The notes beneath the pieces were generated by a model, which had not been told where the DNA came from, ran no database searches, and saw only the letters and a list, made by a program, of their open reading frames with translations. Position numbers and translations under genes: made by a program. Shown piece after piece: positions 1 to 42,605 of a DNA stretch of 64,000 bases (its first letter is position 1; each line of letters begins with the position of its first letter). Source of the stretch: Nitrososphaerota archaeon (lineage in GTDB: Archaea > Thermoproteota > EX4484-205 > JAAOZP01); assembly GCA_011605725.1 (NCBI GenBank), contig JAAOZP010000009.1:1-64000 (forward strand), in the 5' to 3' direction.

Positions 1-3000
1 CCATACTTCGAGCAGGTCGGGGTCTTCGAGGAGAAGAATGCTGCGGAAATTCTCGGCGTTAAGCCGGGTTTGCTAAGGAGCAACAGCTCAATCGGTGAAT
101 ACAGGACTAGGCTGGTCAGCCAGACGTGGAGGATTAGCGGAGGCATCGTGATGAACGCGACACAGTTTGCAGCCTACAACCGAACTATGAACAGTTTCAT
201 CTCTGAGAACAACCTGCAGGGCGAGTTTAAAATAGGCTGGAGAAGGCTTACGAACGCGACGAGGCTCGCGAAACCCTCTAGCGAAAAAGGCTTCCTAACC
301 CTGATCTACCGTCCTCTCAGCGTAAAGGGAAGTGGACCGCTGAAATCGATTCAAGTGAAGAACTATGCCTGGAGAGACATGGAGTACGAGCTGAAGGTGG
401 GCAGCTACATGGCTCCGCCGCAGCTTGAGACAACCATCTTCGAGAATGTTGAGGCAACAAGCCTGACCGTAGGAAGGAACAGTGACCATGTTTTCCTCTC
501 AGCATCCATGGTTGGCGAGGCCCGTCTGTTGCGCGTAAACCTCAGCTACAGCGGTATGCTTGTCGCAAGGCTGGAGTACGAGCTTAAGCCTGTTGAGTCC
601 GGGGAAACGTTGTTCTGGAGGGGCTTCTGGGACGCGTTGAACGAGCGCCTGCCGGGGATAGCTGCTATGAGCGGAGTTATGATCGGCGGTAGCCTGCTTA
701 TCGCGCTCGGCGCGACTGTTTCAGGGCTTCCCTCGCTCATCCTTAAGGGCTTGGGAACCGGGGTTAAGCTCGCAGCATTCCTCTACTATCTTTTCCGCGG
801 AGTACCTCTGAACATCGGGGAGATCACGCACGCTTTCAACGCTACAGCCTTCCACCTGGGGCAGTCATACGAGTACGCGAGCCTAGCATGCCTCCTGGAG
901 GAGGTGGAGCAGCCAGTCTGCACCGCCCTGCTTGCGAAGGAGTATCTTCTCCACAGCGAGCTCCTCAACTTCGTGAGTACAGGGAGACTCTCTCCCATGC
1001 TTCACAGTATTGAGAAAATAAGTAGGGAGATGATGGAGGTTGCCCGGCCCAGGGGCTTCTTGGCGTCGATTCTCTGGGACGCTGCGGTAGCGGAGCTCAG
1101 GATAGCGGAGAGGATTGCGGAGGACACTGTGATGGATCTTTTCTTCGACGTCAGCCTTACTGATGTTGAGATAGCGCTGAGCCGGGGGGCAGACCCGCAT
1201 CTAAGCGGGAGAGCATGGGGAAGGATCACGGCTTCCCTACTGTCTTTCACCGCACTCGTGCTTTCATACAAGGCTGGGGAGAAGATTGAGGAGAAGGCTT
1301 TGGAGAGCAAGCTGGAGGCTAAGGTGTGGAACACTAAGGGTCTGCTGAACTATCTCGGAGAGAGGTTCTACGCCTGGGTGACCTTCCCCCTCGTAGACCT
1401 TGTCTCAACAATACTCAGCCTTAAGAATGTGCTGGTTTTCGTCGTTAAACACCCTGTTGCAGCAGCCAGGATAGCGAGGCTCGCAATCCTGCTGAGGCTG
1501 AAGGACCTTGGCGAGCAGGTTGGAGAGAGCCTGAGCGGGAGAACAGGCTGGCTCTGGGAAAGCCTGGAGAGCAGGCTTGTCGAAAGGCTGAGGAACGCCG
1601 GCTCCGAGGAGGAGATTGGTAGGGTGTTCGACACCCTTGATGACTGCGGCCTGGTGGACGATGCGATAGGACTCGTGAAAAGCCTTAGGAAAACCGGGGG
1701 AAGCATGGATTGGGACAGGACTGTATTCAGGCTTCTTTACGCGATGGCTGACAAGGGTGTTGACGCGGATGAGCAGGCAAGCATCCTCAGGAGCCTCGAC
1801 CAAGCAGCAAGGAAATGGGGTGATGCAGAGAACTTCGTCGACCTGTTTAACGGGCTGAGAGCCTCGCTGAGTCTGGATGAGGACCTGAGGGGAAGGGTCT
1901 TCCAATACCTGCGCGAGTATGCGGCCGGCGAAGACGGGAACAGGATTCTCCTCTTGACGAGGACGCTTGAAGCCCTTCAGGCAAGGCTGGAGAAAGGATA
2001 CGGCGCTGAGAAGCTGGGGCTCATTCTGGACGAGATGGGAGACATGAACTGCTACAGGTTTAAACTCGGCAAGGAGACTGGGAGCGAGAGCTTCCAGCTC
2101 GGGGGTGAGATAAGCCCTGGAACATACATGGCGACGCTCAGGGTGAAGACGGGGGGCGGGGTGGAAACATTCATGTTCCCGGTTAAGACGGAGACCCAAG
2201 CGTCTAAAATCAAGATGCCGATAAGCGTTTGGAATCAGATTAAGGATCTAAACCCGTATTTGATCGACGTTAAGCTCGTCGACTACAGGCTTGCTTTCCC
2301 AATGGATTTCGCCGTAGCAGGCAGGAGGCTTACCGCAGATGTCTTCACGAACGAGATGGAGCTCGATGGAAGAAAGGTTGGGTTTGAAATCGAAAAAGTA
2401 TCGCACCGCGAGGACGAGCTTCACGTGCGGATAGAGATAAAGAACTCAGTCGGCATACAGGCTCATCAACACCTCGTGCTCGCCCTCTCCCATAGGGGGA
2501 GCGTGGAGCTCAGCCCTCCTGGTGGCGGGACGATCCGCCCGCTTGAAGAAATAAGATGGGTAAACGGGCATACCATCGAGACCGTCTACGTGGTTGAGGA
2601 TGTGCCTCAGAGGGGGCTTTTCAGCTTCAAGTCTGACGACCGTGAAAGCCAGCTTAAGAATGGGCTGTGGGAGAAGGAGACAACGATATCAGTCCTCGAG
2701 GAGGGGGAGGCCAAGCAGAGGGTCAGCCTGAAAACATTCCTGTTCACAGAGCTGGGATGGAAGGCGTACGACGAGCTTAAGGAGAAGATAGAAGATAACT
2801 ACGTTCTGGTCGCGGAGTTCGACAACAACAGGGTGGCGACCTGCAAGAGCGAAGGCCTCACGGTCGCCATACCTGAAGGGGCAGAGGGGATAACGAGGAT
2901 AAGCATAATCTCAAAGGGCAGAGAATTGGAGTTTTACCTTGGGAGGGTAATGGATCCCGAGGCTGAAGAGCTGGATATAGGGAAGACAGGCGAGCTCATT

Positions 3001-3489
3001 CTTTACGAGTACCGTAGGTCCATGCTTCTCCCATGGGAGAGCTTATCCGGATGCGTAACGATAATTCACGAAGGAGAGACTGGGAAAGCCGATTTCCCTG
3101 TAGTGGTAAACAGGGATGTGACGCTGAAGATAAGGCTGGAAGATTCGAGAAGGTTTGAGGTTCAAGTAAAGAAGGGAAATAATGTTGCGATTGTTGAGGT
3201 TACCTCTACAAGGAAGCTGGATGAGATGATGAAGGACCCGGAAGGCTTTGTTAAAAATAAGATGACAACTGGAAGAGGGAACCCTATGAGTGACCTCGAG
3301 AAGCATGCTAAGGAATATGGTGTCAGGCTTGGAGTAACAGGTGTCTTTGCTTATGATCCTGAAAAGGTGTTTCTAGATAAAGGGGAGGGCATCTTAGACG
3401 TCATAGGTAATGTTAAGAACCCGTATATGGAAACGTTTTTCTTCGACGGGGAGAACTGGATTAGGGTGGTGAGCATAGAGGTTGGCTGA
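1..3489 (+). CDS. Giant putative polymorphic toxin 1 (5'-truncated by the window); conserved trunk plus C-terminal PD-(D/E)xK-like domain
   Basis: Frame is open from base 1 (PYFEQVGVFEEK...). Trunk motifs align with the 9407..14308 protein (IYRPL..KNYA/VYHPL..RNYA; FWRGF/WWRGF; DVSL..GRAWGRI/DVSL..GYAAGRI; FYAWVT/LYAWIT). C-terminus has IGKTGE..ADF..IVEVTST. Stop overlaps the next gene. Confidence 0.7.
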   Translation, partial: PYFEQVGVFEEKNAAEILGVKPGLLRSNSSIGEYRTRLVSQTWRISGGIVMNATQFAAYNRTMNSFISENNLQGEFKIGWRRLTNATRLAKPSSEKGFLTLIYRPLSVKGSGPLKSIQVKNYAWRDMEYELKVGSYMAPPQLETTIFENVEATSLTVGRNSDHVFLSASMVGEARLLRVNLSYSGMLVARLEYELKPVESGETLFWRGFWDALNERLPGIAAMSGVMIGGSLLIALGATVSGLPSLILKGLGTGVKLAAFLYYLFRGVPLNIGEITHAFNATAFHLGQSYEYASLACLLEEVEQPVCTALLAKEYLLHSELLNFVSTGRLSPMLHSIEKISREMMEVARPRGFLASILWDAAVAELRIAERIAEDTVMDLFFDVSLTDVEIALSRGADPHLSGRAWGRITASLLSFTALVLSYKAGEKIEEKALESKLEAKVWNTKGLLNYLGERFYAWVTFPLVDLVSTILSLKNVLVFVVKHPVAAARIARLAILLRLKDLGEQVGESLSGRTGWLWESLESRLVERLRNAGSEEEIGRVFDTLDDCGLVDDAIGLVKSLRKTGGSMDWDRTVFRLLYAMADKGVDADEQASILRSLDQAARKWGDAENFVDLFNGLRASLSLDEDLRGRVFQYLREYAAGEDGNRILLLTRTLEALQARLEKGYGAEKLGLILDEMGDMNCYRFKLGKETGSESFQLGGEISPGTYMATLRVKTGGGVETFMFPVKTETQASKIKMPISVWNQIKDLNPYLIDVKLVDYRLAFPMDFAVAGRRLTADVFTNEMELDGRKVGFEIEKVSHREDELHVRIEIKNSVGIQAHQHLVLALSHRGSVELSPPGGGTIRPLEEIRWVNGHTIETVYVVEDVPQRGLFSFKSDDRESQLKNGLWEKETTISVLEEGEAKQRVSLKTFLFTELGWKAYDELKEKIEDNYVLVAEFDNNRVATCKSEGLTVAIPEGAEGITRISIISKGRELEFYLGRVMDPEAEELDIGKTGELILYEYRRSMLLPWESLSGCVTIIHEGETGKADFPVVVNRDVTLKIRLEDSRRFEVQVKKGNNVAIVEVTSTRKLDEMMKDPEGFVKNKMTTGRGNPMSDLEKHAKEYGVRLGVTGVFAYDPEKVFLDKGEGILDVIGNVKNPYMETFFFDGENWIRVVSIEVG

Positions 3490-4132
3490 ACAGAGCCTTC
3501 CGGAGAAGGTGAGGGATTTTCTTAACGAGAGGCATAGACCCTATGAGCCATATGAAGTAAAGCAATGTCCATTACCATGTGAGGAGTGGGGAGTTTGTTT
3601 GGAGGAAATCGATATGTCTGTATGGAAGGATGAGGCCGGGAAGATTCATATTATGAATGATGCGCATCGCCCGAAGGATGTGCTGTTATGGATGGATGAC
3701 CATGTCGTTGTCGGGAGCAGGAGGCCAACGAGTAAGGAGAGCAAGAAGAGGATGTGGGAGAAGAGGGAGGAGATAGTAGGCGAGGTTCTTGAATGTATAG
3801 AGAAAAAGAAGTGGGATGAGCGCTTCAAATTCAAGAGCAAGAAGATCAGAAAGCTGATTGCCGAAATAATGTGGGGCGACGAGGTGGCGAAGATTGTAGG
3901 CGGAAGGCTTGGAGTAGAAATCGAATTCATTACGATAGCTGGCGAATCAGCGTTTGAATCCGTTTTCGACTCAAAGGGAATGAGTGATGAGCAAATACTT
4001 AGGGAGATAGCTAAGAGGCATGAGGCACTAGAGGAAGCATACCACAAGTATATGAGGTCGTTAAGGCAGAGCATGAGGGGGCATGGGGAATTTAAGGAGT
4101 TTTATAAGAAAGTATTTGCGGAGGAAAAATAG
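3482..4132 (+). CDS. Putative cognate immunity protein of toxin 1
   Basis: 216 aa charged cytoplasmic ORF whose start overlaps the toxin stop; paralog immediately downstream. Function is inferred from context. Confidence 0.6.
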   Translation: MAEQSLPEKVRDFLNERHRPYEPYEVKQCPLPCEEWGVCLEEIDMSVWKDEAGKIHIMNDAHRPKDVLLWMDDHVVVGSRRPTSKESKKRMWEKREEIVGEVLECIEKKKWDERFKFKSKKIRKLIAEIMWGDEVAKIVGGRLGVEIEFITIAGESAFESVFDSKGMSDEQILREIAKRHEALEEAYHKYMRSLRQSMRGHGEFKEFYKKVFAEEK

Positions 4133-4735
4133 TTGGACTCTAGTATTTGCGCGTTAAATTGGGGACCTAAAAAATAAATTCAAGGATCGTTAATAATCCT
4201 TGAAAATGAGTGAAAACATGGGTAAGAACTTGCCTGAAAAAATTGCGGCTCTTCTAAGTGGGAAGACGCGTCTCATGAAGTTTAAGAAGTGGGAAGTTTG
4301 TATAAAGAGTCGTCTGGACGGATGTTATAACTCTGTCTGGGAGGATAACGACGGTAAGATTCATCTCCTGGGTAGCGTGGAGAACAGGCCTGGAAAAAAG
4401 CTTCTCTGGATGCCCGACTCCGTCTTTATCGGAAATATGGAGGGAGATGAGAAGAAAAGGATGAAGATGAGGTTTGAGGCACAACGGGAGCTCATGGATC
4501 TAATCGAGAAGAAGAAATGGGACGAGTGCCTCTTGAAGTTTAAGGACAAGCAGATCAGAAAGCTGATTGCCGAAATAATGTGGGGCGACGAGGTGGCGAA
4601 GATCGTTAGCAAGGCGACTGGCGTAGAGGTAACATTCAGAACAGTCGGAGGCAAATCAGCGTTTGAATCCGTTTTCGACTCGAAGGGAATGAGTGATGAG
4701 CAAATACTTAGGGAGATAGCTAAGAGGCATGAGGC
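3843..4735 (+). repeat. Direct repeat blocks shared by the two immunity paralogs
   Basis: 52-bp identical block at 3843-3894 and 4552-4603; 82-bp block with one mismatch at 3945-4026 and 4654-4735; both offset by 709 bp. Confidence 0.9.
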
Positions 4736-4820
4736 GCTTAGAGAAGCTACTTTGAGGTATCATGTGCAAGACAGTACTTCCAGGGGGTTTAAGAGGAAGG
4801 TTTTAGCAGGATTAGAATAG
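4206..4820 (+). CDS. Paralog of 3482..4132 (putative orphan immunity protein)
   Basis: Shares IRKLIAEIMWGDEVAKIV and SAFESVFDSKGMSDEQILREIAKRHEAL with the upstream gene; N-terminal half diverged. Confidence 0.65.
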   Translation: MSENMGKNLPEKIAALLSGKTRLMKFKKWEVCIKSRLDGCYNSVWEDNDGKIHLLGSVENRPGKKLLWMPDSVFIGNMEGDEKKRMKMRFEAQRELMDLIEKKKWDECLLKFKDKQIRKLIAEIMWGDEVAKIVSKATGVEVTFRTVGGKSAFESVFDSKGMSDEQILREIAKRHEALREATLRYHVQDSTSRGFKRKVLAGLE

Positions 4821-4909
4821 CCAACCTACTAAAACTCCATCCCGATTTCCTCTGCCTTATGCGGTGAATATGTTTCGTTCATCCTGTCTGATTGGCCACC
4901 TGGTTAAGT

Positions 4910-5115
4910 GGAAACACGTATATGACGCTCCTCCGTAAATTCGGGGCAGGTCCTTCCACCTTGAGGAGGCAGCTAACGCACTAGGAGTAAAACCCAGCTA
5001 TATGAAGAACCTGCTGAGCGAGCTTAGGCGTAGGGGTTGGCTTATTTCAAATCCTGATTCGAACGATGCGCGGCGTGCCGTTTATAACTTGACCTTGCTG
5101 TTATTAGCGGGATGA
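4910..5115 (+). pseudogene. Degraded winged-helix (MarR-like) regulator
   Basis: Manual translation SFHLEEAANALGVKPSYMKNLLSELRRRGWLISNPDSNDARRAVYNL; frameshifted near 4940; stop overlaps the ATG at 5112. Confidence 0.55.
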
Positions 5116-5307
5116 AAACGGAGAAGGTAGGCTTAACGATAAGCAGCTACGAGGGTGAATATGTTCTGTTTGTCAACGGAAGGATAGTCGACAAGGATCA
5201 TGATATCCAAAGGCTGATCAGAAGAGCCTTGAAGAAGTATAAGCCGGAGGAAAATCTTTATAACGAATGTGATGAGGGTAAGGGAGCTCGTCATAATCAG
5301 GTTTTAA
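5112..5307 (+). pseudogene. DUF5678-like small protein with a frameshift
   Basis: YEGEYVLFVNGRIVDKDHD..LIRRALKKY; removing one A in gaggaaaatc (~5250) gives the natural-looking ending EEIFITNVMRVRELVIIRF*. Confidence 0.5.
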
Positions 5308-5316
5308 GTGCTGGCC

Positions 5317-6273
5317 TCATGCGCAGAACAAGCGCGCGCCCCACATTATTGGTGTTTTCCCTTTCCCTTTAACAAGTTCGATGAGATGCTCATAATAGCC
5401 CTCGTAAAGCTTTGGCGCATCGCTGACACCGCTAAGCTGGTTCTCATCGCCCCCAATATGAACGTAACTAGAAGGCCAAAAATTAATCACCTCGTTTAAA
5501 AGACTGTAACCAAAGTTTCTTGCCTCCTTGCTGCTAAGGTCTAGTTGAAAAGTGTTACCGTTTAAGCTATACTTTGAAAGGCTTGGAATGGAAAGTATGT
5601 TATTCATATGTCCTGAAAGTTCAAGCGAGGGGAAAACATCTATTCCAAGCTTTTTCCCATAGCCAATGATTTCTGAGAGCTCTTCTCTCGTAAATTTACC
5701 TCTGCTCGCACCTATCTCAGGATAGTTTTCCCATGGAAAAAGGTCTTCAAGATAAATCCCTAAGTAGTTATACTTGAGCAGGAAAAGAAATTTTAAAAGA
5801 TCTTTGAAAACCTCAACTTTCGGAACCCCTCCCCTTGCTACATCTAAGTGGAAACCTCTAAACTGAAAGTTAAGAAACTCGCCAATTTCAATTTCCGGTA
5901 GGTAGCCGGGTCTCTGCCTTATTAATTGTAGAATAGAAGCATAGGCAACATTAAAGTCTCCTGAAACCTCAACCACTCCATTTTTCACTCTCACATAACT
6001 CGTAAACGAGCCTGGTAGAGTTGTATTAACAATCTTCCAGCTCCCCCTTGCAACGTTAAAGGCTTCTCCCAAAAAGCTAGGAAAATTGCTAAACCCGTTA
6101 AACTGAAACCACCTTCCACTGAAGTTTAAAAATTTTGGCTCAGGCACTATCTTTGGATATGAATAGTTTTCATTCATTGCTCTCACAAACGTTGAGGCTA
6201 CGGGAAAGCTGAAAAGCGAAAGCTGTATCACAGCCACTAAAAATAGAGCACGCACGCTAATTTTCTCTCTCAT
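5317..6273 (-). pseudogene. Secreted GH20 beta-N-acetylhexosaminidase, C-terminally truncated
   Basis: Signal peptide, FRGFHLDVARGG, ELSGH and catalytic HIGGDE; homology stops at GKTPIMWG, before the barrel is complete. Confidence 0.75.
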
Positions 6274-6423
6274 TTCTAATCAGCACCATGCACACTGCCT
6301 TTTTAAGATTATGAAAATCACGTATTCATCTACCCCGTATCTCAGTCTTTTCCTTGGGGATCGACGAGGCTTAAAGGATCCGTAGGTTCCTTCAACCCTA
6401 CTAAGAGCCTCCTTCTCAGCGCG

Positions 6424-7014
6424 CTACACCCCCTCTATGTGAAGCCACATCTTAACATTATGCTGCTTATAGACCTCATAAACCTCCTTAAAGAACTTGC
6501 CCCACTCCTTCATGAAACCGTTCATGAAATCGATACGGTAGGCGATACGTTGCTCTGGCGTTAGGTGCTCTTCTTGACAGGAGACTCCGGTTCTCCTAAT
6601 ATATTCCTCGGCTATCATCCTATCCTCAGGATTATCTTTTGAGAAGAATGTCTTCGTAAGCAATGTTTCCAACTCATCCTTAACCTCTTTAATCTCAAAG
6701 ACTTCAACTGGCCAGAAGAACTTTAAACCCCTCCTCCAGGTTTTCGGATCGACCCTGATATTGTCGGGGTACTTTTTGATAACCGCATTCACCTTAGACA
6801 TTAAGTATGAAACGTAGGGGTTCTTCTTCGCTTCCTCCACTTCTTTTTCACCATAAGCATAAGCCGAATTAATAATAGCCGGTATGTACTTTAACCCTTT
6901 TTTCTCCATAAGCCAACTCTCTCCGGCCAGTGTCATGTACATCTTCCTCAACTCCTCTCTAATCTTCCTCCGCATTTTAGGCTCGAGTTTAATCACCATC
7001 CAGTACTCAGTCAT
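6424..7014 (-). CDS. Orphan immunity protein, paralog of 14315..14902
   Basis: Full-length similarity (MTEYW...KGLKYIPAII...FSKDNPEDR...NVKMWLHIEGV). Confidence 0.75.
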   Translation of the reverse strand: MTEYWMVIKLEPKMRRKIREELRKMYMTLAGESWLMEKKGLKYIPAIINSAYAYGEKEVEEAKKNPYVSYLMSKVNAVIKKYPDNIRVDPKTWRRGLKFFWPVEVFEIKEVKDELETLLTKTFFSKDNPEDRMIAEEYIRRTGVSCQEEHLTPEQRIAYRIDFMNGFMKEWGKFFKEVYEVYKQHNVKMWLHIEGV

Positions 7015-7020
7015 TCTTCA

Positions 7021-7222
7021 TCAACCTTCATATTTCTCTCCACTTATAAAAATCTCTACTGTGTCTGGGTACTGCCTCATAAGCTCAACTAGGTGGTCTA
7101 ATAGTATCTTGCTCTCTAAGGTTTGGGGGTCGTGTAAGAAACTGTAAACCAACTTCCAAGTATTTTCTTTAGCAATTTCAAGATATCTGCCAGCTTGATC
7201 TATCTCGCTGAGAATGGTTTTT
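7021..7222 (-). pseudogene. Orphan toxin C-terminal fragment (homolog of the toxin 2 tip)
   Basis: Manual translation TILSEIDQAGRYLEIAKENTWKLVYSFLHDPQTLESKILLDHLVELMRQYPDTVEIFISGEKYEG* aligns with the last ~65 aa of 9407..14308; same 6-nt spacer to the immunity ATG. Confidence 0.9.
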
Positions 7223-7373
7223 CGGAGACGGGGAGGAAGACGCTGGTGAAAACGTGACGCATACGTATAGGAAGGAGGGAAACTACACGGTAACCCTAAT
7301 GGTTAGCGACGACGAAGAAGTAGACTGGTGCCTCCTAAAGGTAAGCGTGAAGCCCCGCTTCAAAGAAGCCTGA
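7215..7373 (+). pseudogene. PKD-domain fragment
   Basis: Manual translation WFFGDG..GENVTHTYRKEGNYTVTLMVSD matches the PKD signature WxFGDG..HTY..G.YTVTL; no start codon. Confidence 0.75.
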
Positions 7374-7384
7374 AGCCACCGGCC

Positions 7385-7531
7385 TGCAATACCCTACATG
7401 AATACTTATTATCTAAGGAGTTAAAAGAGCTTCACCATGAATATCTAATAACTGGTGGGATACCCCGCGCCTATATTTCCAATGGATCTATCACTAGGGA
7501 CCTCTATGAAGGTTATGTTGAGCTTTACTGA
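7385..7531 (+). pseudogene. COG1373-type AAA+ ATPase (AAA_14/DUF4143), middle fragment
   Basis: EYLITGGIPRAY..DLYEGYVEL motif. Confidence 0.65.
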
Positions 7532-7746
7532 CACATACTAATTCTCTTTATCGAGATTCGTACTGCTACCGTCTGGAACCATCATTGTTGAGGCCGAATG
7601 GTCTTAAGCAAATGAGTATCCGGAGTTTAGTTTTTCAAATTGATTTGCATGAGTGCTTAAAAACATCTTGATCGTTGTTTAGCAGAATGAGAATATGTGT
7701 CTATTCGAAAAACTTATTTAAAACCTTAACCCTCATTATTACAGCT

Positions 7747-8925
7747 ATGGTTAAGCATGTTTGGCTTGTCTTAGCCCTAGCCTTGCTATCAACCCTCCTC
7801 TCAACTCCTCTGAATGTTTACGCTTCCCCGTTTGAGCTTGCTTATGATGATGGTGACTTTGACTATGCTTGGTCGGACTTCTACCCTAGTGGCGCCGCGG
7901 TCAAGTTTAATCCTCCAGCCTTGCCTTGGAGGATAACCAGCGTGGTTTTCTACGGCCTAGCTTTAGAAAAGGGTGGAAACATGCTTTTCACCCTCGAGAT
8001 AAGGGATCGGGGTTTCACCCTGGTCTACACGGAACAGTACGCGACCTTCCAGTTCTTCGAGAGCGGTACCTTCGGCTGGGCTAGGATTCCTCTTCCAAAC
8101 CTTACTGTTAACGGGGAGTTCTACGTCTGCATCTATCCGTGTTTCTCCCTCGGCGCTACTCAGCTCTGGATAGGTGTTGATGATGATCCCCCGGTCAGCA
8201 ATAGGAGCCTCCTGGTAGACAGGGAGGAGGGCAGGATAGTCAAGACTTGGGATGAGAAAAGCGGTAGGCCGAGGAACTTCATGATAAGGGTTGAAGGTGC
8301 TCAAGCCGTCAGCGTTGCCAGCATAGGCGTGTCCTCCATCAGGATTGGGGAGCAGGGTGTCGAGGTCAGGCTCAACATTGCTTCAAGCCAACCCATCGTA
8401 AATGTTGAGGGAATACTTAGGCATGGTCTAACCTGGGACCCATGCCCCATCACTCTTGAAGACAATGCTTACGTTGCGAGACTCCCGGGGCCGGGGAACC
8501 TTACCGTCAACGTTAAGACCATGGATGCGACTTTCGGCGCAACTATTAACATTCAGGTTGAAGTCTGGAAAGCATACCTGGAGCTTAGAAAAAGGGTTGG
8601 AATGCTTGAGGAGAGCAACCAGACTCTAACCAGTCTTGTTCAAGAGTTGTCCTGGAGGGTTATGGAGCTTAACAACAGCGTGGTTGAGCTTAACGCTCTC
8701 AACAAGGTTTTGGAGGAAAGGTGGCTCAACGCATTGAATCAGGTGCAGACCCTGAACGAAACCCTGGTCACCGTTAGGAGTGAGGCGGAGGCTTTGAAGG
8801 ATGAGAACAACTGGCTAAGGATTACCGGCATAATCTTCGCCACCCTAGCTGTCTTCACTCTCCTCGTGACCCTCGGACTCAGCAGGCTTAGGAAGACCCG
8901 ACGGGGGGAGGAAGCCGGAGAATGA
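7747..8925 (+). CDS. Membrane-anchored secreted protein (signal peptide, ELAYDDG beta-domain, coiled coil, C-terminal TM helix)
   Basis: Hydrophobic N-terminus MVKHVWLVLALALL, heptad region, TM helix followed by a basic tail; stop overlaps the ATG at 8922. Confidence 0.7.
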   Translation: MVKHVWLVLALALLSTLLSTPLNVYASPFELAYDDGDFDYAWSDFYPSGAAVKFNPPALPWRITSVVFYGLALEKGGNMLFTLEIRDRGFTLVYTEQYATFQFFESGTFGWARIPLPNLTVNGEFYVCIYPCFSLGATQLWIGVDDDPPVSNRSLLVDREEGRIVKTWDEKSGRPRNFMIRVEGAQAVSVASIGVSSIRIGEQGVEVRLNIASSQPIVNVEGILRHGLTWDPCPITLEDNAYVARLPGPGNLTVNVKTMDATFGATINIQVEVWKAYLELRKRVGMLEESNQTLTSLVQELSWRVMELNNSVVELNALNKVLEERWLNALNQVQTLNETLVTVRSEAEALKDENNWLRITGIIFATLAVFTLLVTLGLSRLRKTRRGEEAGE

Positions 8926-9272
8926 TGAGGAGAATAGCGAGCATCCTTTTGATTCTCATCCTTCTCATTACCGAGAATGCGAGCACCCTCGTCAACCCCG
9001 GCGAAACACTGGAGCAGCCTGCAGCCGTTGAGCTCGACACCATCATAAGAGAAATTGAACTAGGAGTTCCTCCTGAAGGTCCTCTCAGCGACAGGGAGTT
9101 CCTAATGCCGGAGGGTGTTTCAATAGACGATGTTAAGAATCTTTGGCGCGTCGCTGCGCCCTTTGTAAGCCATGGTGCTGATGACGACATATTCGTAATG
9201 CTTTCGCAAGCCTGGGGGGAACCATTAGGCTTCCGGACGCGGTTAGGATTGGGAACGATAGCTTCCCCATAA
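8922..9272 (+). CDS. N-terminal, signal-peptide-bearing part of toxin 2 (frameshifted)
   Basis: MMRRIASILLILILL signal peptide; the downstream frame is open from 9185; adding one G to the G6 run at 9214-9219 fuses it to 9407..14308. Confidence 0.65.
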   Translation: MMRRIASILLILILLITENASTLVNPGETLEQPAAVELDTIIREIELGVPPEGPLSDREFLMPEGVSIDDVKNLWRVAAPFVSHGADDDIFVMLSQAWGEPLGFRTRLGLGTIASP

Positions 9273-12200
9273 GGTATGATAAGGCCTATGTTGAGAGGAA
9301 CGGCTTCGGGCAGGTTCTAATCCATATTCCTATCGACGTTCCGCTTTTCCAAACTCTCCCGGCATGGCTACACGTCTACTCTAGGGCGATAGGGGGGAAG
9401 CAGCACTTGGTCTACAACGTTACTGAGACACGGTGGTACAGGATAAGGAGGAGGATAGAGGGCCTCTACAACATAACCTACCTTGACCTTGAAACGGGCG
9501 AGACTAGTAGCGTCCTCTCAAGCCTAAGCCTCGGAGTATACCCTGAGTTTGGGATTGCTGAGGAGCCTCCACAGCCATCATTCCCACCAGGGCTTCTCAA
9601 ATACTTCCCTGGGTACGCGAACCTGACGACAATACCTCCTGGGACAATGATAGACTTTTCAAGGGCTACGCCATCATTCCTCGTCGCCGTCCCGGGACAC
9701 TATGAAGACGTTGACATCCTCGTCCCTGAGCACATGGAGAGCTTCAGAGTACTGTTCCCAGCGTACGACCCCGTTATCTTCGCCGGCTGGCTTGTCGAGA
9801 CAAGCCTCTCATCCAGCAGTGTTGAAACAGGCGACATATTAGAGGTAAGCTACACTGCCACGCCTGTTAACATTGATCCTGATGAGCAGCCTCTCAACGC
9901 CACCCTAACCCTCATCTGCCCAGCGGGCTTCGAGCCCATTGACGGTGTTCAGCGTAAGCTTAACAACACGCATACCTCCGGAAGCTTCAAGCTGAAAGCA
10001 ATCGCTCCGGGCACATACGATTTGACGCTTAAGCTGGATGGCAACGCCTTCTTCCCAGGCTGGCCTCCAACGGACGAGGTCACCTATATCGTCAACGTCG
10101 TCGGCCCGGCTTCGCCCATGGTTGAGGTTAGCCTTGAAGGCGGTGAACCCATGTTTAAACACGTTAACACTACGGTTAGGCTTGAAAACAAGGGTGCTGG
10201 AGAAGCCTTCAACACCATTCTAGAGTTCTCCGGAGACGTTGAGCCCCTTAGAGTAGATGTTGGAAGCATCTCTGCAGGGGGAGGCTGGAGCAAGACTGTT
10301 ACGCTCAGGCTGAAGTCAGCCCTTGCGAATATAAAGGCTAGGGTAACGTTCTTCGATGCCTCGGGGAACAAGTATGTTTCAGAAGGCTTTGCGACGGTTT
10401 TTTCACCAAACTACGTCGTGCCTGAACATTTCGAAGAATACACGCTGAGGGTTCCTGAGCACTTTGAGAAGAGGAGGGTATTCGTCCCCGGCTACGAGGG
10501 CTATACTCATGTTAAAATCTACCATCCCTACTCCGCCTTCGAGATCCCGGGGAGCTTCACCATCGGCTTCGAAGGCATTATTCTTGAGGCTGAGGGAGTA
10601 AAAGTATACACTTCTTTCCTACCTATTGCTGACGAGGGCTTCGAGCTCAGAGTTATTCCGAAAAACCTTACGCTCAACATCTACGGGGATGTTCTCGTGG
10701 GATCCCTCATCCCGGTTCAAGGATTGCAGACAACAGTACCCGTGAAATACGTGGTGACTAGTGTTGAGCCTGCTTTCGAGGAGAAGCTGGTGAGGGAGGA
10801 TGAGGCCAAGAGTATTCTGAACGCAACGGGCTGCGGTGAAGTAAAGGCGCCGGAGGGCTATGAGGTTACTCTTGCTTCTAAACGAGTGGTTAGGAAGCCC
10901 ATCTGGGTTGACACATCAACCTACAGGAGGCTTCAGCAGGAGGGCTTCGGAATAATAAGGGAGGGATGCTACTGGTATGAGGATGGACATAGGGAGGAGT
11001 GGCCCTCCTCCGACGCGGTTTGCGAGTCAACACCATTTGAAAGAGAAGTGTTCGCCAACAGGATTGTACTGGTCTATCATCCGCTTCAGGAAGTCGCCAC
11101 CGGCTCGCTTGCAAGAGGGCTCTGGCTCAGAAACTACGCTACCCAGGACATAGATTACACGATTACTGTTGAGCCAGTCACCCTGCCTCCGTCGAAGCCT
11201 GAAACCGCCACGTTGAAAGCCGGGAAGGCTAGTTGCAAGGAGCTCAGCCTGCTCCTCTTCACAAACACGACTTTCTGGGTTAGGCTTCGTAAGGATGAAA
11301 GGCTTGTGGCCGAGCTCTTCATGCCGAGGGTTCTAAGCCTCCCATTCCCGTTCTCCCTGCAGTGGTGGCGCGGCTTCGCCCTTGGCCTCATCAATAGGAG
11401 CCAGAGGATAATGGTGAACATTATGATGCTCAGCATGGTTGCGATGGTTCCGAGAGAACTGATGCCAGTCATAGCGGTTGCACTAGGTTTCATGAAGGCG
11501 TGCCAAGTCTACAACCAGAGGGGCGAGATCTTCAACGCAACCATGGCGTTGGGGAACCTGATGAGCATGGGACTCATATACCGCGGCATGGCTGACGGCT
11601 ATAGGCTTCAGAATAAGAATGGTTTCGCAGCCGTGTGCAACAACCTTTCTCAAACATTCCTGGAGAAAGCCAGGGAGGTTGCCAGCGACCTTGGCCTCAG
11701 GCTAATCTTGGATGTTTCCCTAGAGGACTTTAAGGTAGCCTTAGGGTTTAGGAGGGCGAGCGAGTTTGAGCAGGGTTATGCTGCGGGCAGAATCGTAGGC
11801 GCGATGGTTGAGGCAGCATCCTACGCAGCCACCTACGCAACAATCTACCACGAGTTTTCAACAGCCAGGGACATGCTTAACGCAGCGGGGCAAGCCGGAG
11901 AATTCTCCGCGGCAGAAGTGTTGAAGAGGTTTGGGCAGGGGCTCTACGCGTGGATAACCCCCGCGATATGGGACCTCGCCGAAACAGGGATAAAACTCGG
12001 AGTGTGGGTTAAGGGCAAACTCAGCCTGCCTGATGTTTCAAAGCTCATCCTGGCAGACCGTTTCAGCAACGAATTCGGCGAGACTGTTGGAAAAGCATTC
12101 CGGAGCCTCCCGGACGGAGGGGAGCCTGAGGATATTGCGAAAGGGGTTTCAAACATTGTCGACAAGGCTACTCTCGACAGTGATGTTCCTGAAAGCGTTG

Positions 12201-14308
12201 GGTCAAGAATACTTGACATCCTGAGCAGAATCAGCAGGGAGTATGTTGGTGAAAAAGACTGGGGGGAGAAGTCTTACCGGACCCTGAAAATCATGGTTGA
12301 AGCATGGAAGAGGGTTAGCGAGCTTGAAGCGTGGAAGAAAGGGGGTGAGCCTGGGAAGCTTCTGATGGACTGGATGGACGGTACTAGTAACGGGAAAGGT
12401 GGAGAGATGGTTACTGTTCTAAGGGGGCTGGCTCAGCTGGGTGACGGTGAGCTTGAAAGCGTAGGAAGAGCTTTAACCAGGGATGGAGACGATTCTGAGA
12501 ATGGGCTTATGCTTTTCAAAACTTACCTCGGCGCTAGGGATGATTATGGCAGGGAGATTGCTGACGCCTTCTTAAACAGCATCTCTAAGCATCCTGAGCT
12601 GTTAAGCCTCTGGAGCGGAGCCGTGGAGGACAGGGCCGCAATATTCATCGGAGCATCCCATGAACAGGATAGGATATCTTTACCGGAGGGTATTCGCGAG
12701 AGTGTTTACCGTGTCATCATACAGGATTCCGAAGGCGAGAACATCCTGATAGACGACTTCAGAAGGATCGGCAGCGGGCAGGAGACTATCCGCTTCTCCT
12801 CCGAGGATACTGCCGGCAGGATAAGGAAGGGCCAAGAATACCTGGTTATTCTTAAGACTGCAACCCCAGGGGACTTTCTCGAGAAATACCCGTCGAGGTT
12901 CGTTAAGGCTACTGGGGGAAACGCCTACTTGATGGATACTGAGAAAAGCAGGGTCGTTGAAGGACTGGTTGGGGAGCTGGACGAGTATGGAGGCTTCGCC
13001 TTCATCAGGTTTATGGTTACAGATGCTGACGGAAAACAGGTTGAGCTCAGGCTAACCCAGGGAGGGAGGCTGATGCTGATCTCCGGCGAAGGGAGAACCA
13101 TGATAGGCGGGGTTGAGTTGAAAACCGTTTGGGACGATGCCGGAGGCGAGGTGGCTAGGCTCCTGTTCCTGCAGGAGGAGGGCCTAGACAGGTACGGCGG
13201 GATAATTGTTCTAAACAGGAGGCTTCCCTTGAGACCCGTGTTGTTCCTGGGCAACGAGGAGCACATTATAGAGATAGAGCTAGGCCAGAAATACCTTGAC
13301 GTAAGCGGGATGCTTAAGAGAATCATAGGCGGCGAAGAATATTCGAGGCTCAGCGGAGAAATGAGCAGCGGGGACGCGGTTCTTGGAGTAGCTTACCTTA
13401 AGCAGGATGGCGGAGTAGATTCAGCGTGGACCCGGAGCGCTGACGCGGAGTTCAAGATTAAGGAGGCGGAGGATGTGCTCGGCCTAATTATTGTAAGGAA
13501 GAACGGTCTTAGCGCGGTGAGCCTCGACGAGAGTGTTAGAGCAGAGCTTTCCGGCGAATCCCTGAAGTTCCATGGTGTCAAGGGGATGAGCGGGGGCGCC
13601 GCATTCAGGGTGAGTGAAGCCCGCTTCAGGGAGCTCAGCGGGTATGGTCCGATTCTCGAGATTACTCTGCCGAGCGGCGAGGCTATTCTGTTCCGCGTTG
13701 ACGTGGGTGGAGACGGTAAAACAGTATACTCGAAGCTAGCCTTAGCAGTGGAACGGTATGCGCCTGAGATAAACCCGGTTGAATACTACGGCGAGCTCAA
13801 GTTTAAACTGAGCGAGGGTGGCCAAACTTTCGAGTATACTCTAAGGGACTTGATGGTCGTCGAGTATGAGGACAGCAGGGGCATTCATAGAAGCGTAGTT
13901 GGCTTAAGTGAGCCTCTTCCGGATAAAGTATTGAAGGAACCTCAGCATGTTGCTGCGAAGCTATTTACTAAGTCATTTTTGGAGAAGCAGGGATACAATA
14001 TTTTAGAAGAAGAAAAACATCTTGAATGGTGGGATGAGGATGTGTTCTTCGATTTCCACGTGGAAACACCCGATATGAAAATAGCGATAGTTGAATGCAA
14101 GCATGGTGACGAAACTGTTAGTAAGATAAAGCAGGCGGATAAGTATTTTGAAATTGCTAGGGGAAAAGGCTGGAAACTGATTTACAGCTTCCTGCATGCT
14201 CCCCAGACCCCTCAGGCCGAGGAATTGCTTAATCACTTGGTCGAGCTTATGAGGCAGTACCCAGACACAGTAGAGGTTTTTATAAGTGGAGAGAAATATG
14301 GAGGGTAG
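9221..14308 (+). CDS. Giant putative polymorphic toxin 2: Ig/CARDB-like region, hydrophobic helices, C-terminal PD-(D/E)xK nuclease
   Basis: VRLENKGAGEAFN..VGSISAG (CARDB-like), central hydrophobic helices, and tip LEKQGY..E..FDF..AIVECK..QADKY; open frame extends upstream of the 9407 TTG. Confidence 0.75.
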   Translation, partial: TIRLPDAVRIGNDSFPIRYDKAYVERNGFGQVLIHIPIDVPLFQTLPAWLHVYSRAIGGKQHLVYNVTETRWYRIRRRIEGLYNITYLDLETGETSSVLSSLSLGVYPEFGIAEEPPQPSFPPGLLKYFPGYANLTTIPPGTMIDFSRATPSFLVAVPGHYEDVDILVPEHMESFRVLFPAYDPVIFAGWLVETSLSSSSVETGDILEVSYTATPVNIDPDEQPLNATLTLICPAGFEPIDGVQRKLNNTHTSGSFKLKAIAPGTYDLTLKLDGNAFFPGWPPTDEVTYIVNVVGPASPMVEVSLEGGEPMFKHVNTTVRLENKGAGEAFNTILEFSGDVEPLRVDVGSISAGGGWSKTVTLRLKSALANIKARVTFFDASGNKYVSEGFATVFSPNYVVPEHFEEYTLRVPEHFEKRRVFVPGYEGYTHVKIYHPYSAFEIPGSFTIGFEGIILEAEGVKVYTSFLPIADEGFELRVIPKNLTLNIYGDVLVGSLIPVQGLQTTVPVKYVVTSVEPAFEEKLVREDEAKSILNATGCGEVKAPEGYEVTLASKRVVRKPIWVDTSTYRRLQQEGFGIIREGCYWYEDGHREEWPSSDAVCESTPFEREVFANRIVLVYHPLQEVATGSLARGLWLRNYATQDIDYTITVEPVTLPPSKPETATLKAGKASCKELSLLLFTNTTFWVRLRKDERLVAELFMPRVLSLPFPFSLQWWRGFALGLINRSQRIMVNIMMLSMVAMVPRELMPVIAVALGFMKACQVYNQRGEIFNATMALGNLMSMGLIYRGMADGYRLQNKNGFAAVCNNLSQTFLEKAREVASDLGLRLILDVSLEDFKVALGFRRASEFEQGYAAGRIVGAMVEAASYAATYATIYHEFSTARDMLNAAGQAGEFSAAEVLKRFGQGLYAWITPAIWDLAETGIKLGVWVKGKLSLPDVSKLILADRFSNEFGETVGKAFRSLPDGGEPEDIAKGVSNIVDKATLDSDVPESVGSRILDILSRISREYVGEKDWGEKSYRTLKIMVEAWKRVSELEAWKKGGEPGKLLMDWMDGTSNGKGGEMVTVLRGLAQLGDGELESVGRALTRDGDDSENGLMLFKTYLGARDDYGREIADAFLNSISKHPELLSLWSGAVEDRAAIFIGASHEQDRISLPEGIRESVYRVIIQDSEGENILIDDFRRIGSGQETIRFSSEDTAGRIRKGQEYLVILKTATPGDFLEKYPSRFVKATGGNAYLMDTEKSRVVEGLVGELDEYGGFAFIRFMVTDADGKQVELRLTQGGRLMLISGEGRTMIGGVELKTVWDDAGGEVARLLFLQEEGLDRYGGIIVLNRRLPLRPVLFLGNEEHIIEIELGQKYLDVSGMLKRIIGGEEYSRLSGEMSSGDAVLGVAYLKQDGGVDSAWTRSADAEFKIKEAEDVLGLIIVRKNGLSAVSLDESVRAELSGESLKFHGVKGMSGGAAFRVSEARFRELSGYGPILEITLPSGEAILFRVDVGGDGKTVYSKLALAVERYAPEINPVEYYGELKFKLSEGGQTFEYTLRDLMVVEYEDSRGIHRSVVGLSEPLPDKVLKEPQHVAAKLFTKSFLEKQGYNILEEEKHLEWWDEDVFFDFHVETPDMKIAIVECKHGDETVSKIKQADKYFEIARGKGWKLIYSFLHAPQTPQAEELLNHLVELMRQYPDTVEVFISGEKYGG

Positions 14309-14314
14309 AGAAGA

Positions 14315-14902
14315 ATGACGGAGTATTGGATAGTGGTCAAGCCTGCGCCTAAAACTCCAAGAAAGATAAGGGAGAGGTTGAAACACATATCGATGTCAGC
14401 GGTAGGATCTTGGCGCATGAAAAGTAAGGGATTGAAGTATATTCCTGCTATCATCGATTCCGCTTACGCTTGGGGGGAGAAGGAGGTTGAGGAGGCTAAG
14501 AAGGACCCGGTCGTCTCCTACCTAATGGGTAAGGTGGAGGTCATGATTAAGAAGTGCCGAGACAACATAAGAGCCAACCCCAAAACGCTTGGGCCAGATT
14601 TCAAGATTTTCTGGCCCGTGGAAGTTCTAGACCTTGAGGAGGTTAGGAAAGAACTGGAGATACTATTAACGAGAGAACTGTTTTCAAAGGATAATCCTGA
14701 AGATAGACGGATAGCGGAGGAAGATATTAAAAGAACTGATCTGGCTATTGGGGAGGAAGGGATGAAGTCTGAACAACGTATCGACTCTCGCATCGATTTC
14801 TTTAATAGGAATATGAGGAAATGGGGTGAGTTCTTTAAGGAGGTTTATGAGGTCTATAAGCAGTATAATGTTAAAATGTGGCTTCACATAGAGGGAGTGT
14901 AA
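14315..14902 (+). CDS. Putative cognate immunity protein of toxin 2
   Basis: 195 aa ORF 6 nt after the toxin stop; duplicated together with the toxin tip at 6424..7222. Confidence 0.7.
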   Translation: MTEYWIVVKPAPKTPRKIRERLKHISMSAVGSWRMKSKGLKYIPAIIDSAYAWGEKEVEEAKKDPVVSYLMGKVEVMIKKCRDNIRANPKTLGPDFKIFWPVEVLDLEEVRKELEILLTRELFSKDNPEDRRIAEEDIKRTDLAIGEEGMKSEQRIDSRIDFFNRNMRKWGEFFKEVYEVYKQYNVKMWLHIEGV

Positions 14903-14969
14903 GCGCGCGCTGAAATCCATTATCTTTCTTTTCCTTTAACCTTAATAAAATGCTAGATGTGTCCCATCC

Positions 14970-37801: not shown

Positions 37802-38104
37802 CTACTCGAAGAGCGCGCCTAGTCCAGCCATTTCCTCAGCCGGCTTCTTCTCCTCCTTCTTCTCCTCCTTCTTCTCAGCCGGTGCCTGCTGGGCTGCTGG
37901 CGTAGCTGGGGCTACTGGACCTATTGCCAGCGGAGTTGATAATACTTCATCAATATTCACTTTCGAGAGCGAGGAAACCAGTACTTTTATCCTGGCTTCA
38001 TCAGGCTCTATGCCTGCTGCCCTCATTATGGCTTTTATCCTTTCCTCTGTAATCTCCTGCTTTGCGGAATGCAGGAGCAGTGCCGCATGGATGTATTCAG
38101 ACAT
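37802..38104 (-). CDS. rpl12: 50S ribosomal protein P1 (L12)
   Basis: [24 protein letters not shown]. Confidence 0.97.
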
Positions 38105-38248
38105 CAGCATCCACCTCAGAATTTTCTGAGCATTCTTACGCAGGGTGTTTTTAAGCTTTTATCCGCTCTTTCAACATACCTTTAAACCTGCTTAAACGTT
38201 CTTTAGAAGACAAGCTCCTTAGTGATACCGTGTCATGGGCTTCTGAGC

Positions 38249-39097
38249 CTAGGCTTTTTCAAGAACTGATTCAAGCCGGCTTGCCTCTGCTCTCGCTGTC
38301 TGCAGCATTATTCTAACCGTGTTTTCATCATAGTACTGTGCTTTAAGGCTTAGTGTAACGGCCTTGGAAAAGGCTTCTCTAAGCATTATTCTAAGAGATT
38401 CAGGCGTCGGGAAGAACGTTGCAACAGACAGTTTTAAAGCGTTTTCAACACTCTTTGAGAATCCATTCGCAATGTCCTCAAAAGTTATTGAGAGAACTTC
38501 CTCACTATATACTATGCCATCGTGAATCGCGGCGTATGATTTTATGAATGCTTCAACAGGCCTTATGTTAAGCTTCGAGAGGACGGAGGCCAGTTGAGGC
38601 GTAACCACGTCCCCCGGCTTCGCTACGACAGTGTCTTTCGTTACCCATATGCTTCCGGTTTCAATCCTCGTCGGTAGGCCTACCTCGTTGAGAGAAGAGA
38701 TCACTGGGCCAGCTGGAAGACCGGTGTTTCCAGCGGGAACAACTATCTCCCTGTCAACAACATCCCCAGCGTTAAGAGGCAGTCTTATCGAATATTTCTT
38801 AAGCTCCTGTTGTAGCTCATACGGATTCACGTTTGAAACAATCAGCATTACTGAACCCTTGGAAGCATACTTCTTTAAGAACTCTCTTAACGCTTGCGAA
38901 CTTGTTTTCTCAGCAGCCTTCTGTAGAAGCGTCGTCTTAACATGTTTCAGAATAGCTTTCCCCCTTAGTCTTCTCCTAGCCTCGTTTATCGTTATGGATT
39001 TAACCCTGAAAGTGTTGACAAGCATAACCGTCTTGCTCGACTCTATCAGGCGGAGAATCTCGTCTACTACTCTTGCCTTGAGAACCTGCTGGCTCAA
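38249..39097 (-). CDS. rpl10: 50S ribosomal protein L10 (P0/uL10)
   Basis: VPAGNTGLPAGP, LSKLNIRP; gene order. Confidence 0.95.
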   Translation of the reverse strand: MSQQVLKARVVDEILRLIESSKTVMLVNTFRVKSITINEARRRLRGKAILKHVKTTLLQKAAEKTSSQALREFLKKYASKGSVMLIVSNVNPYELQQELKKYSIRLPLNAGDVVDREIVVPAGNTGLPAGPVISSLNEVGLPTRIETGSIWVTKDTVVAKPGDVVTPQLASVLSKLNIRPVEAFIKSYAAIHDGIVYSEEVLSITFEDIANGFSKSVENALKLSVATFFPTPESLRIMLREAFSKAVTLSLKAQYYDENTVRIMLQTARAEASRLESVLEKA

Positions 39098-39771: not shown

Positions 39772-39772
39772 T

Positions 39773-40282: not shown

Positions 40283-40344
40283 CGTGAGGCCTCTTGCAAG
40301 CCTTAAAAATATTTCTTAAGCAATCCAGGCCCTTAGGAATGGGT

Positions 40345-40833: not shown

Positions 40834-40837
40834 CCCC

Positions 40838-41023
40838 TTATCTGAGTTTCACACCCGTTAGCTGAAGGAGTGAGGCAACAATGTGTACAACGAAAGCCAT
40901 TCCCCCGACTACGAGGATTCCGATTAAGAAGATCTTTAGTGATAGCTTCAGCTCTGACCCGTCGGGTTTCTCGCTGAGCTTCAACACTCTAATTATGGTT
41001 CTAACCCTGTCTGTAAGACCCAT
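40838..41023 (-). CDS. secE: Protein translocase subunit SecE/Sec61gamma
   Basis: RVLKLSEKPD plus one TM helix; between ftsY and spt5. Confidence 0.9.
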   Translation of the reverse strand: MGLTDRVRTIIRVLKLSEKPDGSELKLSLKIFLIGILVVGGMAFVVHIVASLLQLTGVKLR

Positions 41024-41069
41024 ACCCGGTTTCCAACTGGAAAACAGGAATATATTCTTTTCCCCCGGA

Positions 41070-42581: not shown

Positions 42582-42605
42582 GCCTGAGCCTGGAGACGGG
42601 GCTTA

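Follow-up and report, generated by a model that had tools for sequence, protein, structure and literature searches.

Giant surface proteins with exchangeable nuclease-like tips and co-varying downstream genes: a candidate polymorphic toxin/immunity system in Candidatus Brockarchaeota

Introduction

Polymorphic toxin systems are one of the main means by which bacteria fight among kin. In this study, we analysed a stretch of 64,000 nucleotides (the window; positions 1 to 64,000 of contig JAAOZP010000009.1, contig C19 of genome G000 in our numbering) from a metagenome-assembled genome (MAG) of Candidatus Brockarchaeota, a hot-spring archaeon. Two very large proteins are encoded here (giant 1 and giant 2), each next to a much smaller gene that we call its follower, and a first-pass annotation, made from the sequence alone, had read them as a polymorphic toxin system for competition between cells. 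Classical systems of this type are generally absent from most archaea and the rare cases found there are mostly bacterial acquisitions (Zhang et al., 2012, PMC3482391); as of 2021, no archaeal polymorphic toxin had been characterized experimentally (PMC8416519). Our literature search, which did not cover Makarova et al. (2019), a paper older than the published Brockarchaeota genomes, found no paper that ties Brockarchaeota to a polymorphic toxin system.

Organization of the locus

The two giants and the features that belong with them are arranged in the window as follows.

1–3489, + strand: giant 1 (P0001), 1162 aa in view, truncated at the 5' end where the contig begins
2842–3486, + strand: tip of giant 1 (class T1), a predicted PD-(D/E)xK-fold domain (alignment, AlphaFold2 (AF2) model, VIA)
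3482–4132, + strand: P0003, follower of family F2, candidate cognate immunity protein of giant 1
4200–4820, + strand: P0004, second F2-family follower, a tandem extra immunity-like gene, 52% identical to P0003
6424–7212, − strand: orphan module made up of a T2-tip remnant (7024–7212) and the F1 follower P0006 (6424–7014)
7675–8925, + strand: P0007, conserved upstream partner, 416 aa; probable true start near 7747
8922–14308, + strand: giant 2, about 1796 aa when read through a 1-nt deletion; main frame P0002 (1633 aa) at 9407–14308
13781–14305, + strand: tip of giant 2 (class T2), a four-stranded beta unit and a predicted PD-(D/E)xK nuclease domain
14315–14902, + strand: P0005, follower of family F1, 195 aa, candidate cognate immunity protein of giant 2
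14902–14911, no strand: A(GC)4T palindrome at the 3' edge of the cassette, abutting the P0005 stop codon

The first-pass annotation had placed the giants, a follower of about 200 aa directly after each of them and a second copy of each follower nearby, and these placements were confirmed: P0003 stands after giant 1 and P0005 after giant 2, and the second copies are P0004 and P0006, the latter 66% identical to P0005. It had also called the two follower families unrelated, in agreement with which we found no profile similarity between F1 and F2 (hhalign E 0.27). In Pfam, no family was found at threshold for both giants, ten sub-regions, the four followers and the upstream partner, and none of the Imm-family models matched the followers, for which there were only unrelated sub-threshold matches. 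Follower profiles searched against the PDB returned nothing for F1 and only designed-protein noise for F2, and an ESM Atlas look-up of P0005 gave no usable match. The followers have neither a signal peptide nor a hydrophobic or membrane segment.

To place the window among its relatives we use a survey of about 45 related loci drawn from 14 genomes. Most of these loci hold a three-gene cassette, consisting of an upstream partner, a giant of 1400–1860 aa and a follower of 195–395 aa; the partner, a P0007-type gene of 380–450 aa, abuts or overlaps the start of the giant, and the follower's start is placed between −43 and +7 nt relative to the stop of the giant. In the window, giant 1 and P0003 overlap by 8 nt at their stop and start, and giant 2 ends in two Gly codons, GGAGGG, that make a Shine–Dalgarno-like motif 9 nt before the ATG of P0005. 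Because of this start/stop overlap and the placement of GGAGGG, the genes of a cassette may be translationally coupled. Many giants across the related loci end in Gly-Gly right before the stop codon, and this recurring terminal 'GG' is probably the ribosome-binding site of the follower and not a protein signal.

The giants consist of a signal peptide, an N-terminal half rich in N-glycosylation sequons, a conserved trunk with membrane and helical parts, and a variable C-terminus of about 450–650 aa. A Sec-type signal peptide had been noted before and is present, in giant 2 at 8922–8990. The N-terminal part of about 750 aa is conserved within the family; the CARDB/Ig-like segments that had been proposed find an echo in beta-sandwich hints, but all of these are sub-threshold (E ≥ 0.01). 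Within the trunk, the motifs WRGF, GYAxGRxVG and NWITPAIWD are invariant or near-invariant in 26 members that are otherwise 17–25% identical to giant 2, the residues concerned being W61 and F64 (of WRGF), G197 and G201, and W256, T258, P259 and D263. The earlier claim that the two giants of the window share a trunk therefore holds as far as the quoted motifs are concerned, but the direct pairwise similarity is weak (23% identity, E 4e-7), and the kinship of the two trunks is secure only via the family profile. No Rhs, FHA, LXG or Hint hallmarks had been seen, and this stands: Pfam gave nothing at E ≤ 0.1 for the whole proteins or at E ≤ 5 for pieces of them, which covers YD/Rhs repeats with an Rhs core and an N-terminal LXG domain, and the scans of the giants and their pieces likewise found no TPS domain, FHA repeats, VENN pre-toxin motif or CdiB transporter.

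The trunk family is small. A search with the trunk profile found 58 clusters among 1.84 billion representative proteins; ten of these were looked up, of which one is a spurious insect match and nine are hypothetical or unnamed proteins, whose sources are unlabelled metagenome contigs or MAGs that carry the label Thermoproteota, Brockarchaeota, Bathyarchaeia or Nitrososphaerota. Homologs with names are annotated as hypothetical proteins and come from Candidatus Brockarchaeota or Thermoproteota MAGs. A family match is present in 15 of the 401 genomes sampled from the phylum, including the source genome; 12 of the 16 other genomes of the source genus have one, as do one genome in a sister family and one from another part of the phylum. 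A genome may contain up to 10–14 matching places in a single-protein search, and four giants are present in the source genome, two in the window, one on contig C8 and one on contig C4. The F1 follower family is equally narrow (22 clusters).

In the P0007-type partner, a conserved globular domain and a coiled coil are predicted alongside a signal peptide, and at the C-terminus a membrane anchor with an Arg-rich tail; sequons are abundant in this protein (145 observed against 53 expected, a ratio of 2.7). Searches with these partners returned coiled-coil matches only and no Omp85-type (CdiB-like) identity.

In the window, the signal peptide of giant 2 lies in a separate short open reading frame (ORF), 8922–9272. 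An intact 1796-aa ortholog from another genome (G025), 94% identical, starts with the same signal peptide, and compared with this ortholog the window is without one G after 9188, in a GACGACGA run. Because of this missing base giant 2 is split into two ORFs, only 89 codons into the gene; the frameshift is either that of a real pseudogene or an error of the MAG. The junction between the conserved and the variable part of giant 2 lies at about 12335–12515. In giant 1 the trunk is conserved to about nt 1980, and the variable region spans about 1980–3486.

Exchange of tips and followers

Related loci were compared with one another. Relative to the P0012 ortholog, eight homologs are 70–95% identical up to about aa 1140 and then drop abruptly to about 15–30% over the last 600 aa or so, whereas two homologs with the same tip remain 65–100% identical through to the end. 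Trunks that are more than 70% identical can bear T1, T2 or T4 tips. The class of the tip goes with the family of the follower: T1 is paired with F2 at 15 of 15 loci and T2 with F1 at 14 of 15, and T4 tips pair with the longer F4/F7 proteins. Within a class, the identities of tip and follower are correlated (rho 0.39 and 0.54, Mantel p ≤ 0.009 and 0.0005), and the trunk–tip and trunk–follower correlations lie between −0.17 and 0.17. Giant 2 shows both sides of this pattern most clearly, since compared with one locus its tip is 66% and its follower 64% identical with a trunk of only 22% identity, and compared with another its trunk is 80% identical with a tip of 22% and a follower of 30%. As judged from these comparisons, a tip travels from trunk to trunk together with its follower, as one cassette.

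Two features by which polymorphic toxins are recognized can be seen here, namely a conserved N-terminal part whose C-terminus is replaced by recombination, and an immediately downstream gene that co-varies with it and whose immunity function is predicted. The first-pass annotation had proposed related trunks with different tips and a co-varying downstream gene, and the abrupt drop in identity and the pairing of T1 with F2 and of T2 with F1 bear it out. The trunk search that it had put forward as a check, with C-termini and downstream genes tabulated, was run over the surveyed loci and returned tips that vary and followers that co-vary.

Followers and pieces of tips are also found away from the giants. 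In the window, the remnant at 7212–7024 (63 aa) corresponds to residues 113–175 of the T2 tip (68% identity, tblastn) and lies directly upstream of P0006. On contig C11, positions 37900–42650 hold an array of at least four F1-type genes interleaved with T2-tip fragments, without a full-length giant, and this contig looks like a store of orphan cassettes. Further orphans in the genome are a T1 tip with an F2 gene on contig C20 and scattered F2 fragments. Stand-alone tip and immunity cassettes, a third feature of polymorphic toxins, are thus found in the window, on C11 and on C20, and the orphan modules of the first-pass annotation are real. Tandem F2–F2 pairs, such as P0003 and P0004, are present at two other loci (L044 and L050). 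At C11:99890–102350, a T3-type tip and another F1 gene are about 1.3 kb apart.

The tips and a model of the tip–follower complex

Clustering of the last 250 aa gave four tip classes and a fifth 'class' that is made up only of the truncated copy on C4. All four real classes show an E...D...ExK spacing. In the T2 class, the alignment has H56, E78, D91, E105, K107 and E111 as invariant or nearly so (H1514, E1536, D1549, E1563, K1565 and E1569 in P0002), and in the T1 class E51, D84 and E119 are conserved (E998, D1031 and E1066 in P0001); the D and ExK motifs of the T1 and T2 profiles are in register (hhalign E 0.004). Some tips have eroded motifs that read ExE or SxK.

The AF2 models of the T2 and T1 tips have a predicted local distance difference test score (pLDDT) of 88.3 and 88.6, respectively. 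With the T2 model, Foldseek found SfsA, NucS, Bax1, Can2 and CdiA-CT at E 8e-4 to 1e-2, and VIA gave XisH (Z 10.2), NucS (9.7) and AF1548 (9.5), followed by CdiA-CT and TseT at Z 6.6–6.8. With the T1 model, Foldseek alone returned nothing at E ≤ 0.001; the top VIA matches are BpuSI, HsdR, phage exonucleases and Hjc at Z 5.0–6.5, scores that are weak taken alone, with matches that are nearly uniform in fold. The T2 tip can be assigned to the PD-(D/E)xK superfamily by the invariant E78, D91, E105 and K107 together with VIA Z scores of 8–10, and the T1 tip more weakly, its predicted fold drawing on VIA Z scores of 5–6.5 and the motifs. At the level of sequence, the T2 profile found NucS as its best match in the PDB, which is weak (E 0.042), the T1 profile found nothing meaningful there, and the tips of the window as single sequences gave no meaningful match either. 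No Pfam Tox-REase model matched the tips, and generic PD-(D/E)xK models gave only single-member sub-threshold matches. The structure search of the tips, another check suggested beforehand, thus returned PD-(D/E)xK matches (T2 by Foldseek and VIA, T1 by VIA), and the earlier claim that the giants end in different PD-(D/E)xK-like domains is upheld by the motifs and fold matches of T1 and T2, though not for the motif of giant 1 itself, where the copy reads E-V-T and not ExK. The shared fold does not fix the substrate of the tips.

The T2 tip was also modelled together with P0005, with each chain given its own family alignment. The median interface score (ipSAE) of three runs was 0.62, compared with 0.00 for the best of three controls, which is the outcome that an earlier suggestion of a tip–immunity complex had anticipated; among solved complexes 58 of 80 reach the ipSAE mark, and among mismatched pairs 2 of 110, figures that are only a rough guide to a model built with own alignments. 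At least 73% of contacts are common to the runs, and the partner pLDDT is at least 87. Confident contacts involve tip residues 51–56, 78–91 and 111–118, which make up the catalytic face and include E78, D91 and E111. The model supports the idea that P0005 binds over the active site of the T2 tip.

Sequons and membrane topology

N-glycosylation sequons were counted across 22 giants and compared with expectation. In these proteins, which are related to one another, the N-terminal half has 224 sequons where 77 are expected and the membrane block 33 where 16 are expected, but the helical region after the membrane block has only 3 where 29 are expected and the C-terminal region 1 where 25 are expected. 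In each tip class, the final 250 aa have a ratio of observed to expected of 0.00–0.20. As a background, soluble ORFs of the source genome have a ratio of 0.88, with 0.51 in the lowest 7-kb chunk, and the ratios of the followers (F1 0.60, F2 1.08) are much nearer to this cytoplasmic background than those of the tips. The sequons of the membrane block sit in an acidic loop of about 90 aa between helices 2 and 3, and the loop after helix 3 is net positive.

An N-out, C-out topology fits these data, because the loop between helices 2 and 3 is rich in sequons and that between helices 3 and 4 is net positive. Furthermore, the post-membrane half has far fewer sequons than cytoplasmic proteins, which suggests that it is exported. 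The simplest reading would be an N-out, four-helix, C-out protein with selection against glycosylation of its cargo, helix 4 being marginal. Sequon avoidance may in this way offer a route, from sequence alone, to asking whether an archaeal domain is exported.

Interpretation and alternatives

Architecture, swapping, pairing, orphan modules, fold and complex model all support the earlier interpretation as a polymorphic toxin system for competition between cells. We consider it probable that the locus belongs to a lineage-specific archaeal polymorphic nuclease toxin/immunity system, whose tips would be active and toxic nucleases that are exported and delivered into another cell in the course of competition. 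The new elements would be the trunk, the helper protein and the two follower families, each of which matches no described family in our searches.

According to this model, a cassette would encode a glycosylated, membrane-anchored coiled-coil surface protein, the giant, and a cytoplasmic partner of about 200–400 aa. The giant would be exported through its Sec signal peptide, and its N-terminal 750 aa or so would form a glycosylated extracellular stalk, probably receptor-binding. A block of three to four hydrophobic helices would anchor it in the membrane of the producer, followed by the conserved helical region of about 300 aa and then by the exchangeable 450–650 aa or so, in which small beta domains precede the terminal PD-(D/E)xK nuclease; all that follows the membrane block is most likely extracellular too and would be kept free of glycans. 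Upon contact with a neighbour, the nuclease part might come free or be translocated and cleave the nucleic acid of that cell, and cells with the matching follower would be protected as this protein covers the nuclease active site. New tip and follower cassettes would be gained by recombination at the end of the trunk, and displaced ones would persist as orphan modules.

Several points weigh against this model. Hydrophobic helix 4 is a weak one with Asp or Glu in it, and should it fail to cross the membrane, the nuclease half would be cytoplasmic. We identified no processing protease, VENN-like release motif or translocation machinery. All four tip classes belong to one restriction-endonuclease-like fold, whereas bacterial systems mix unrelated toxin folds, and an obligate nuclease module with a co-evolving regulator would look similar. 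The T1 tip of giant 1 itself, with Thr in place of the motif Lys in E-V-T, may be impaired, and the frameshift in giant 2 and the split of the C4 giant (see below) mean that some copies may be dead, unless these are MAG errors. Finally, the surveyed loci come from related genomes, so that the locus counts are not independent.

The marginal fourth helix, by allowing a C-in topology, also leaves room for a membrane-embedded sensor-effector, for example in antiviral defence or abortive infection, whose glycosylated ectodomain responds to events at the cell surface and whose cytoplasmic nuclease is restrained by the follower until triggered. The single tip fold is as would be expected for a fixed effector, and a cytoplasmic follower modelled on the active site is in keeping with it. 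However, the 10- to 25-fold avoidance of sequons in the C-terminal part is far below the cytoplasmic background and is not explained by a cytoplasmic site, and exchange between unrelated trunks, orphan modules and arrays of followers are hallmarks of toxin/immunity systems that defence effectors do not show. We regard this alternative as unlikely.

Secreted nucleases with dedicated cytoplasmic inhibitors are well established, barnase with barstar and NucA with NuiA being examples, and the signal peptide, membrane anchoring and nuclease fold of the giants are all what a surface-anchored nuclease without an antagonistic role would have. Such an enzyme might harvest extracellular DNA, remodel biofilms or serve in DNA uptake, with the follower as a barstar-like inhibitor that protects the producer before export. 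This would give no reason for 4–14 divergent copies per genome, cassette swapping, orphan modules and stand-alone followers, nor does it sit well with a family limited to a narrow lineage, and we think it very unlikely. Least likely of all, by a small margin, is a role in self/non-self (kin) recognition as proposed for VARTIG (PMC8416519), with the variable C-terminus and its partner serving mainly as identity tags and the nuclease fold partly inactive: the eroded motifs of some tips (E-V-T in giant 1, ExE and SxK in others) and the VARTIG-like layout of a large signal-peptide protein with hypervariable C-termini and variable downstream genes speak for it, but the catalytic residues of T2 are invariant, and a follower without signal peptide or membrane segment could not act as a surface tag.

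If the toxin/immunity interpretation is correct, the locus offers a compact and directly testable archaeal case, with a trunk, a helper and two candidate immunity families of no known kind, clear cassette exchange, and a nuclease/partner pair that is small enough for expression and assay.

Comparison with known systems

The bacterial CdiA-CT/CdiI pairs and polymorphic toxins in general (PMC3482391) resemble the archaeal genes in their conserved N-terminal delivery part with an exchangeable C-terminal toxin, in the next-door, co-varying immunity gene, in the orphans made of tip fragments and immunity genes and in the several paralogous loci per genome. In addition, the structural matches of the T2 tip include PD-(D/E)xK tips of CdiA-CT (4g6u, 4g6v, 4zqu). 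Unlike CdiA, the archaeal giants lack a TPS domain, an FHA repeat, a VENN junction and a CdiB partner; membrane helices form an internal block in their trunk, a conserved gene for a coiled-coil partner lies upstream, their tips share a single fold, and the archaeal host has no outer membrane. A restriction-endonuclease-fold toxin with an adjacent neutralizing protein is also found in the T6SS (type VI secretion) pairs TseT (Tox-REase-5)/TsiT (7dym) and PA3907/PA3908 (9oz0), and the T2 tip aligns to both of these toxins at Z 6.6–6.8; the archaeal pairs differ from them in having no Tox-REase or Imm match, and the delivery apparatus is different.

By layout, the nearest archaeal analogue is VARTIG of Thermococcales, which is also lineage-restricted and has a large signal-peptide protein with a recombining C-terminus and variable small genes after it, and whose organization was likened by its authors to polymorphic toxin systems (Makarova et al., 2021, PMC8416519). 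VARTIG is centred on arCOG07710, has been reported from Thermococcales only, and has an Ig domain as its variable part and downstream genes that mostly encode membrane proteins (PMC8416519). A term search found no mention of a nuclease in the text of that paper (PMC8416519), whereas here the variable end is a putative nuclease with a soluble partner, and the two systems are set apart by description. We had considered that the host might belong to Thermococcales and the module be VARTIG itself and dropped this, as the names of homologs point to Brockarchaeota and as the Ig variable end and the membrane-protein downstream genes of its description differ.

The best fold matches of the T2 tip are the NucS/EndoMS, SfsA, XisH and AF1548 types (Z 8.6–10.2 over 101–130 residues, 2.9–4.1 Å). 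Unlike the tip, these are stand-alone cytoplasmic repair or recombination proteins, and their identity to it is 13–16%.

Palindromes at the cassette edges

Palindromes of the form A(GC)nT have a density of 0.76 per 10 kb in the source genome. The window has three, of which two abut stop codons of followers, that of P0005 (14902–14911) and that of P0006 (AGCGCGCT, 6418–6425), and homology to an orthologous locus (L037) stops exactly at the palindrome at 14902–14911. Of about 40 related loci, about 10 have a palindrome at most 136 nt from the last follower. Moreover, the C4 giant (P0011, locus L005) is split, relative to an intact ortholog of 95–98% identity, by a deletion of about 113 nt, which leaves a trunk ORF and a 347-aa ORF carrying a T1 tip and which is sealed by the palindrome TAGCGCGCGCGCTA. 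These findings suggest that a palindrome-marked joining process also shapes the cassettes, whose boundaries would then be tied to the GC-palindrome joints of the source genome. That the C4 paralog might be naturally tipless was ruled out by the same deletion and its TAGCGCGCGCGCTA joint.

A bolder proposal, to which we give only a modest chance, is that of a contact-dependent delivery machine that arose in archaea without a bacterial ancestor. The giant would present an unglycosylated nuclease and pass it across the S-layer and membrane of a neighbour by means of its own helical and hydrophobic trunk and its coiled-coil partner, and the cassettes would be mobilized through the A(GC)nT palindrome joints. 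If true, this would link a new DNA-joining mechanism to the diversification of a weapon.

Contig ends and neighbouring genes

The N-terminal part of about 590 aa that giant 1 lacks, together with its upstream partner gene, is located at the end of contig C10 or C15, both of which terminate in a P0007-like gene followed by about 600 aa of a giant's N-terminus with signal peptide. The ends of these two contigs have an identical 136-bp overlap with the starts of C19 (window 1–136) and C8, which fits a recent gene conversion between paralogs. Outside this 136-bp identity the giant paralogs diverge, and the assembly is broken by it in four ways (C10 and C15 to C19 and C8). Between the two cassettes of the window lie a small DUF5678-like ORF (5112–5372, + strand, E 7.6e-6) and a partial ORF similar to glycoside hydrolase family 20 (5317–6273, − strand, E 5.9e-17). 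DUF5678 and PIN genes are likewise found near a related locus (L007).

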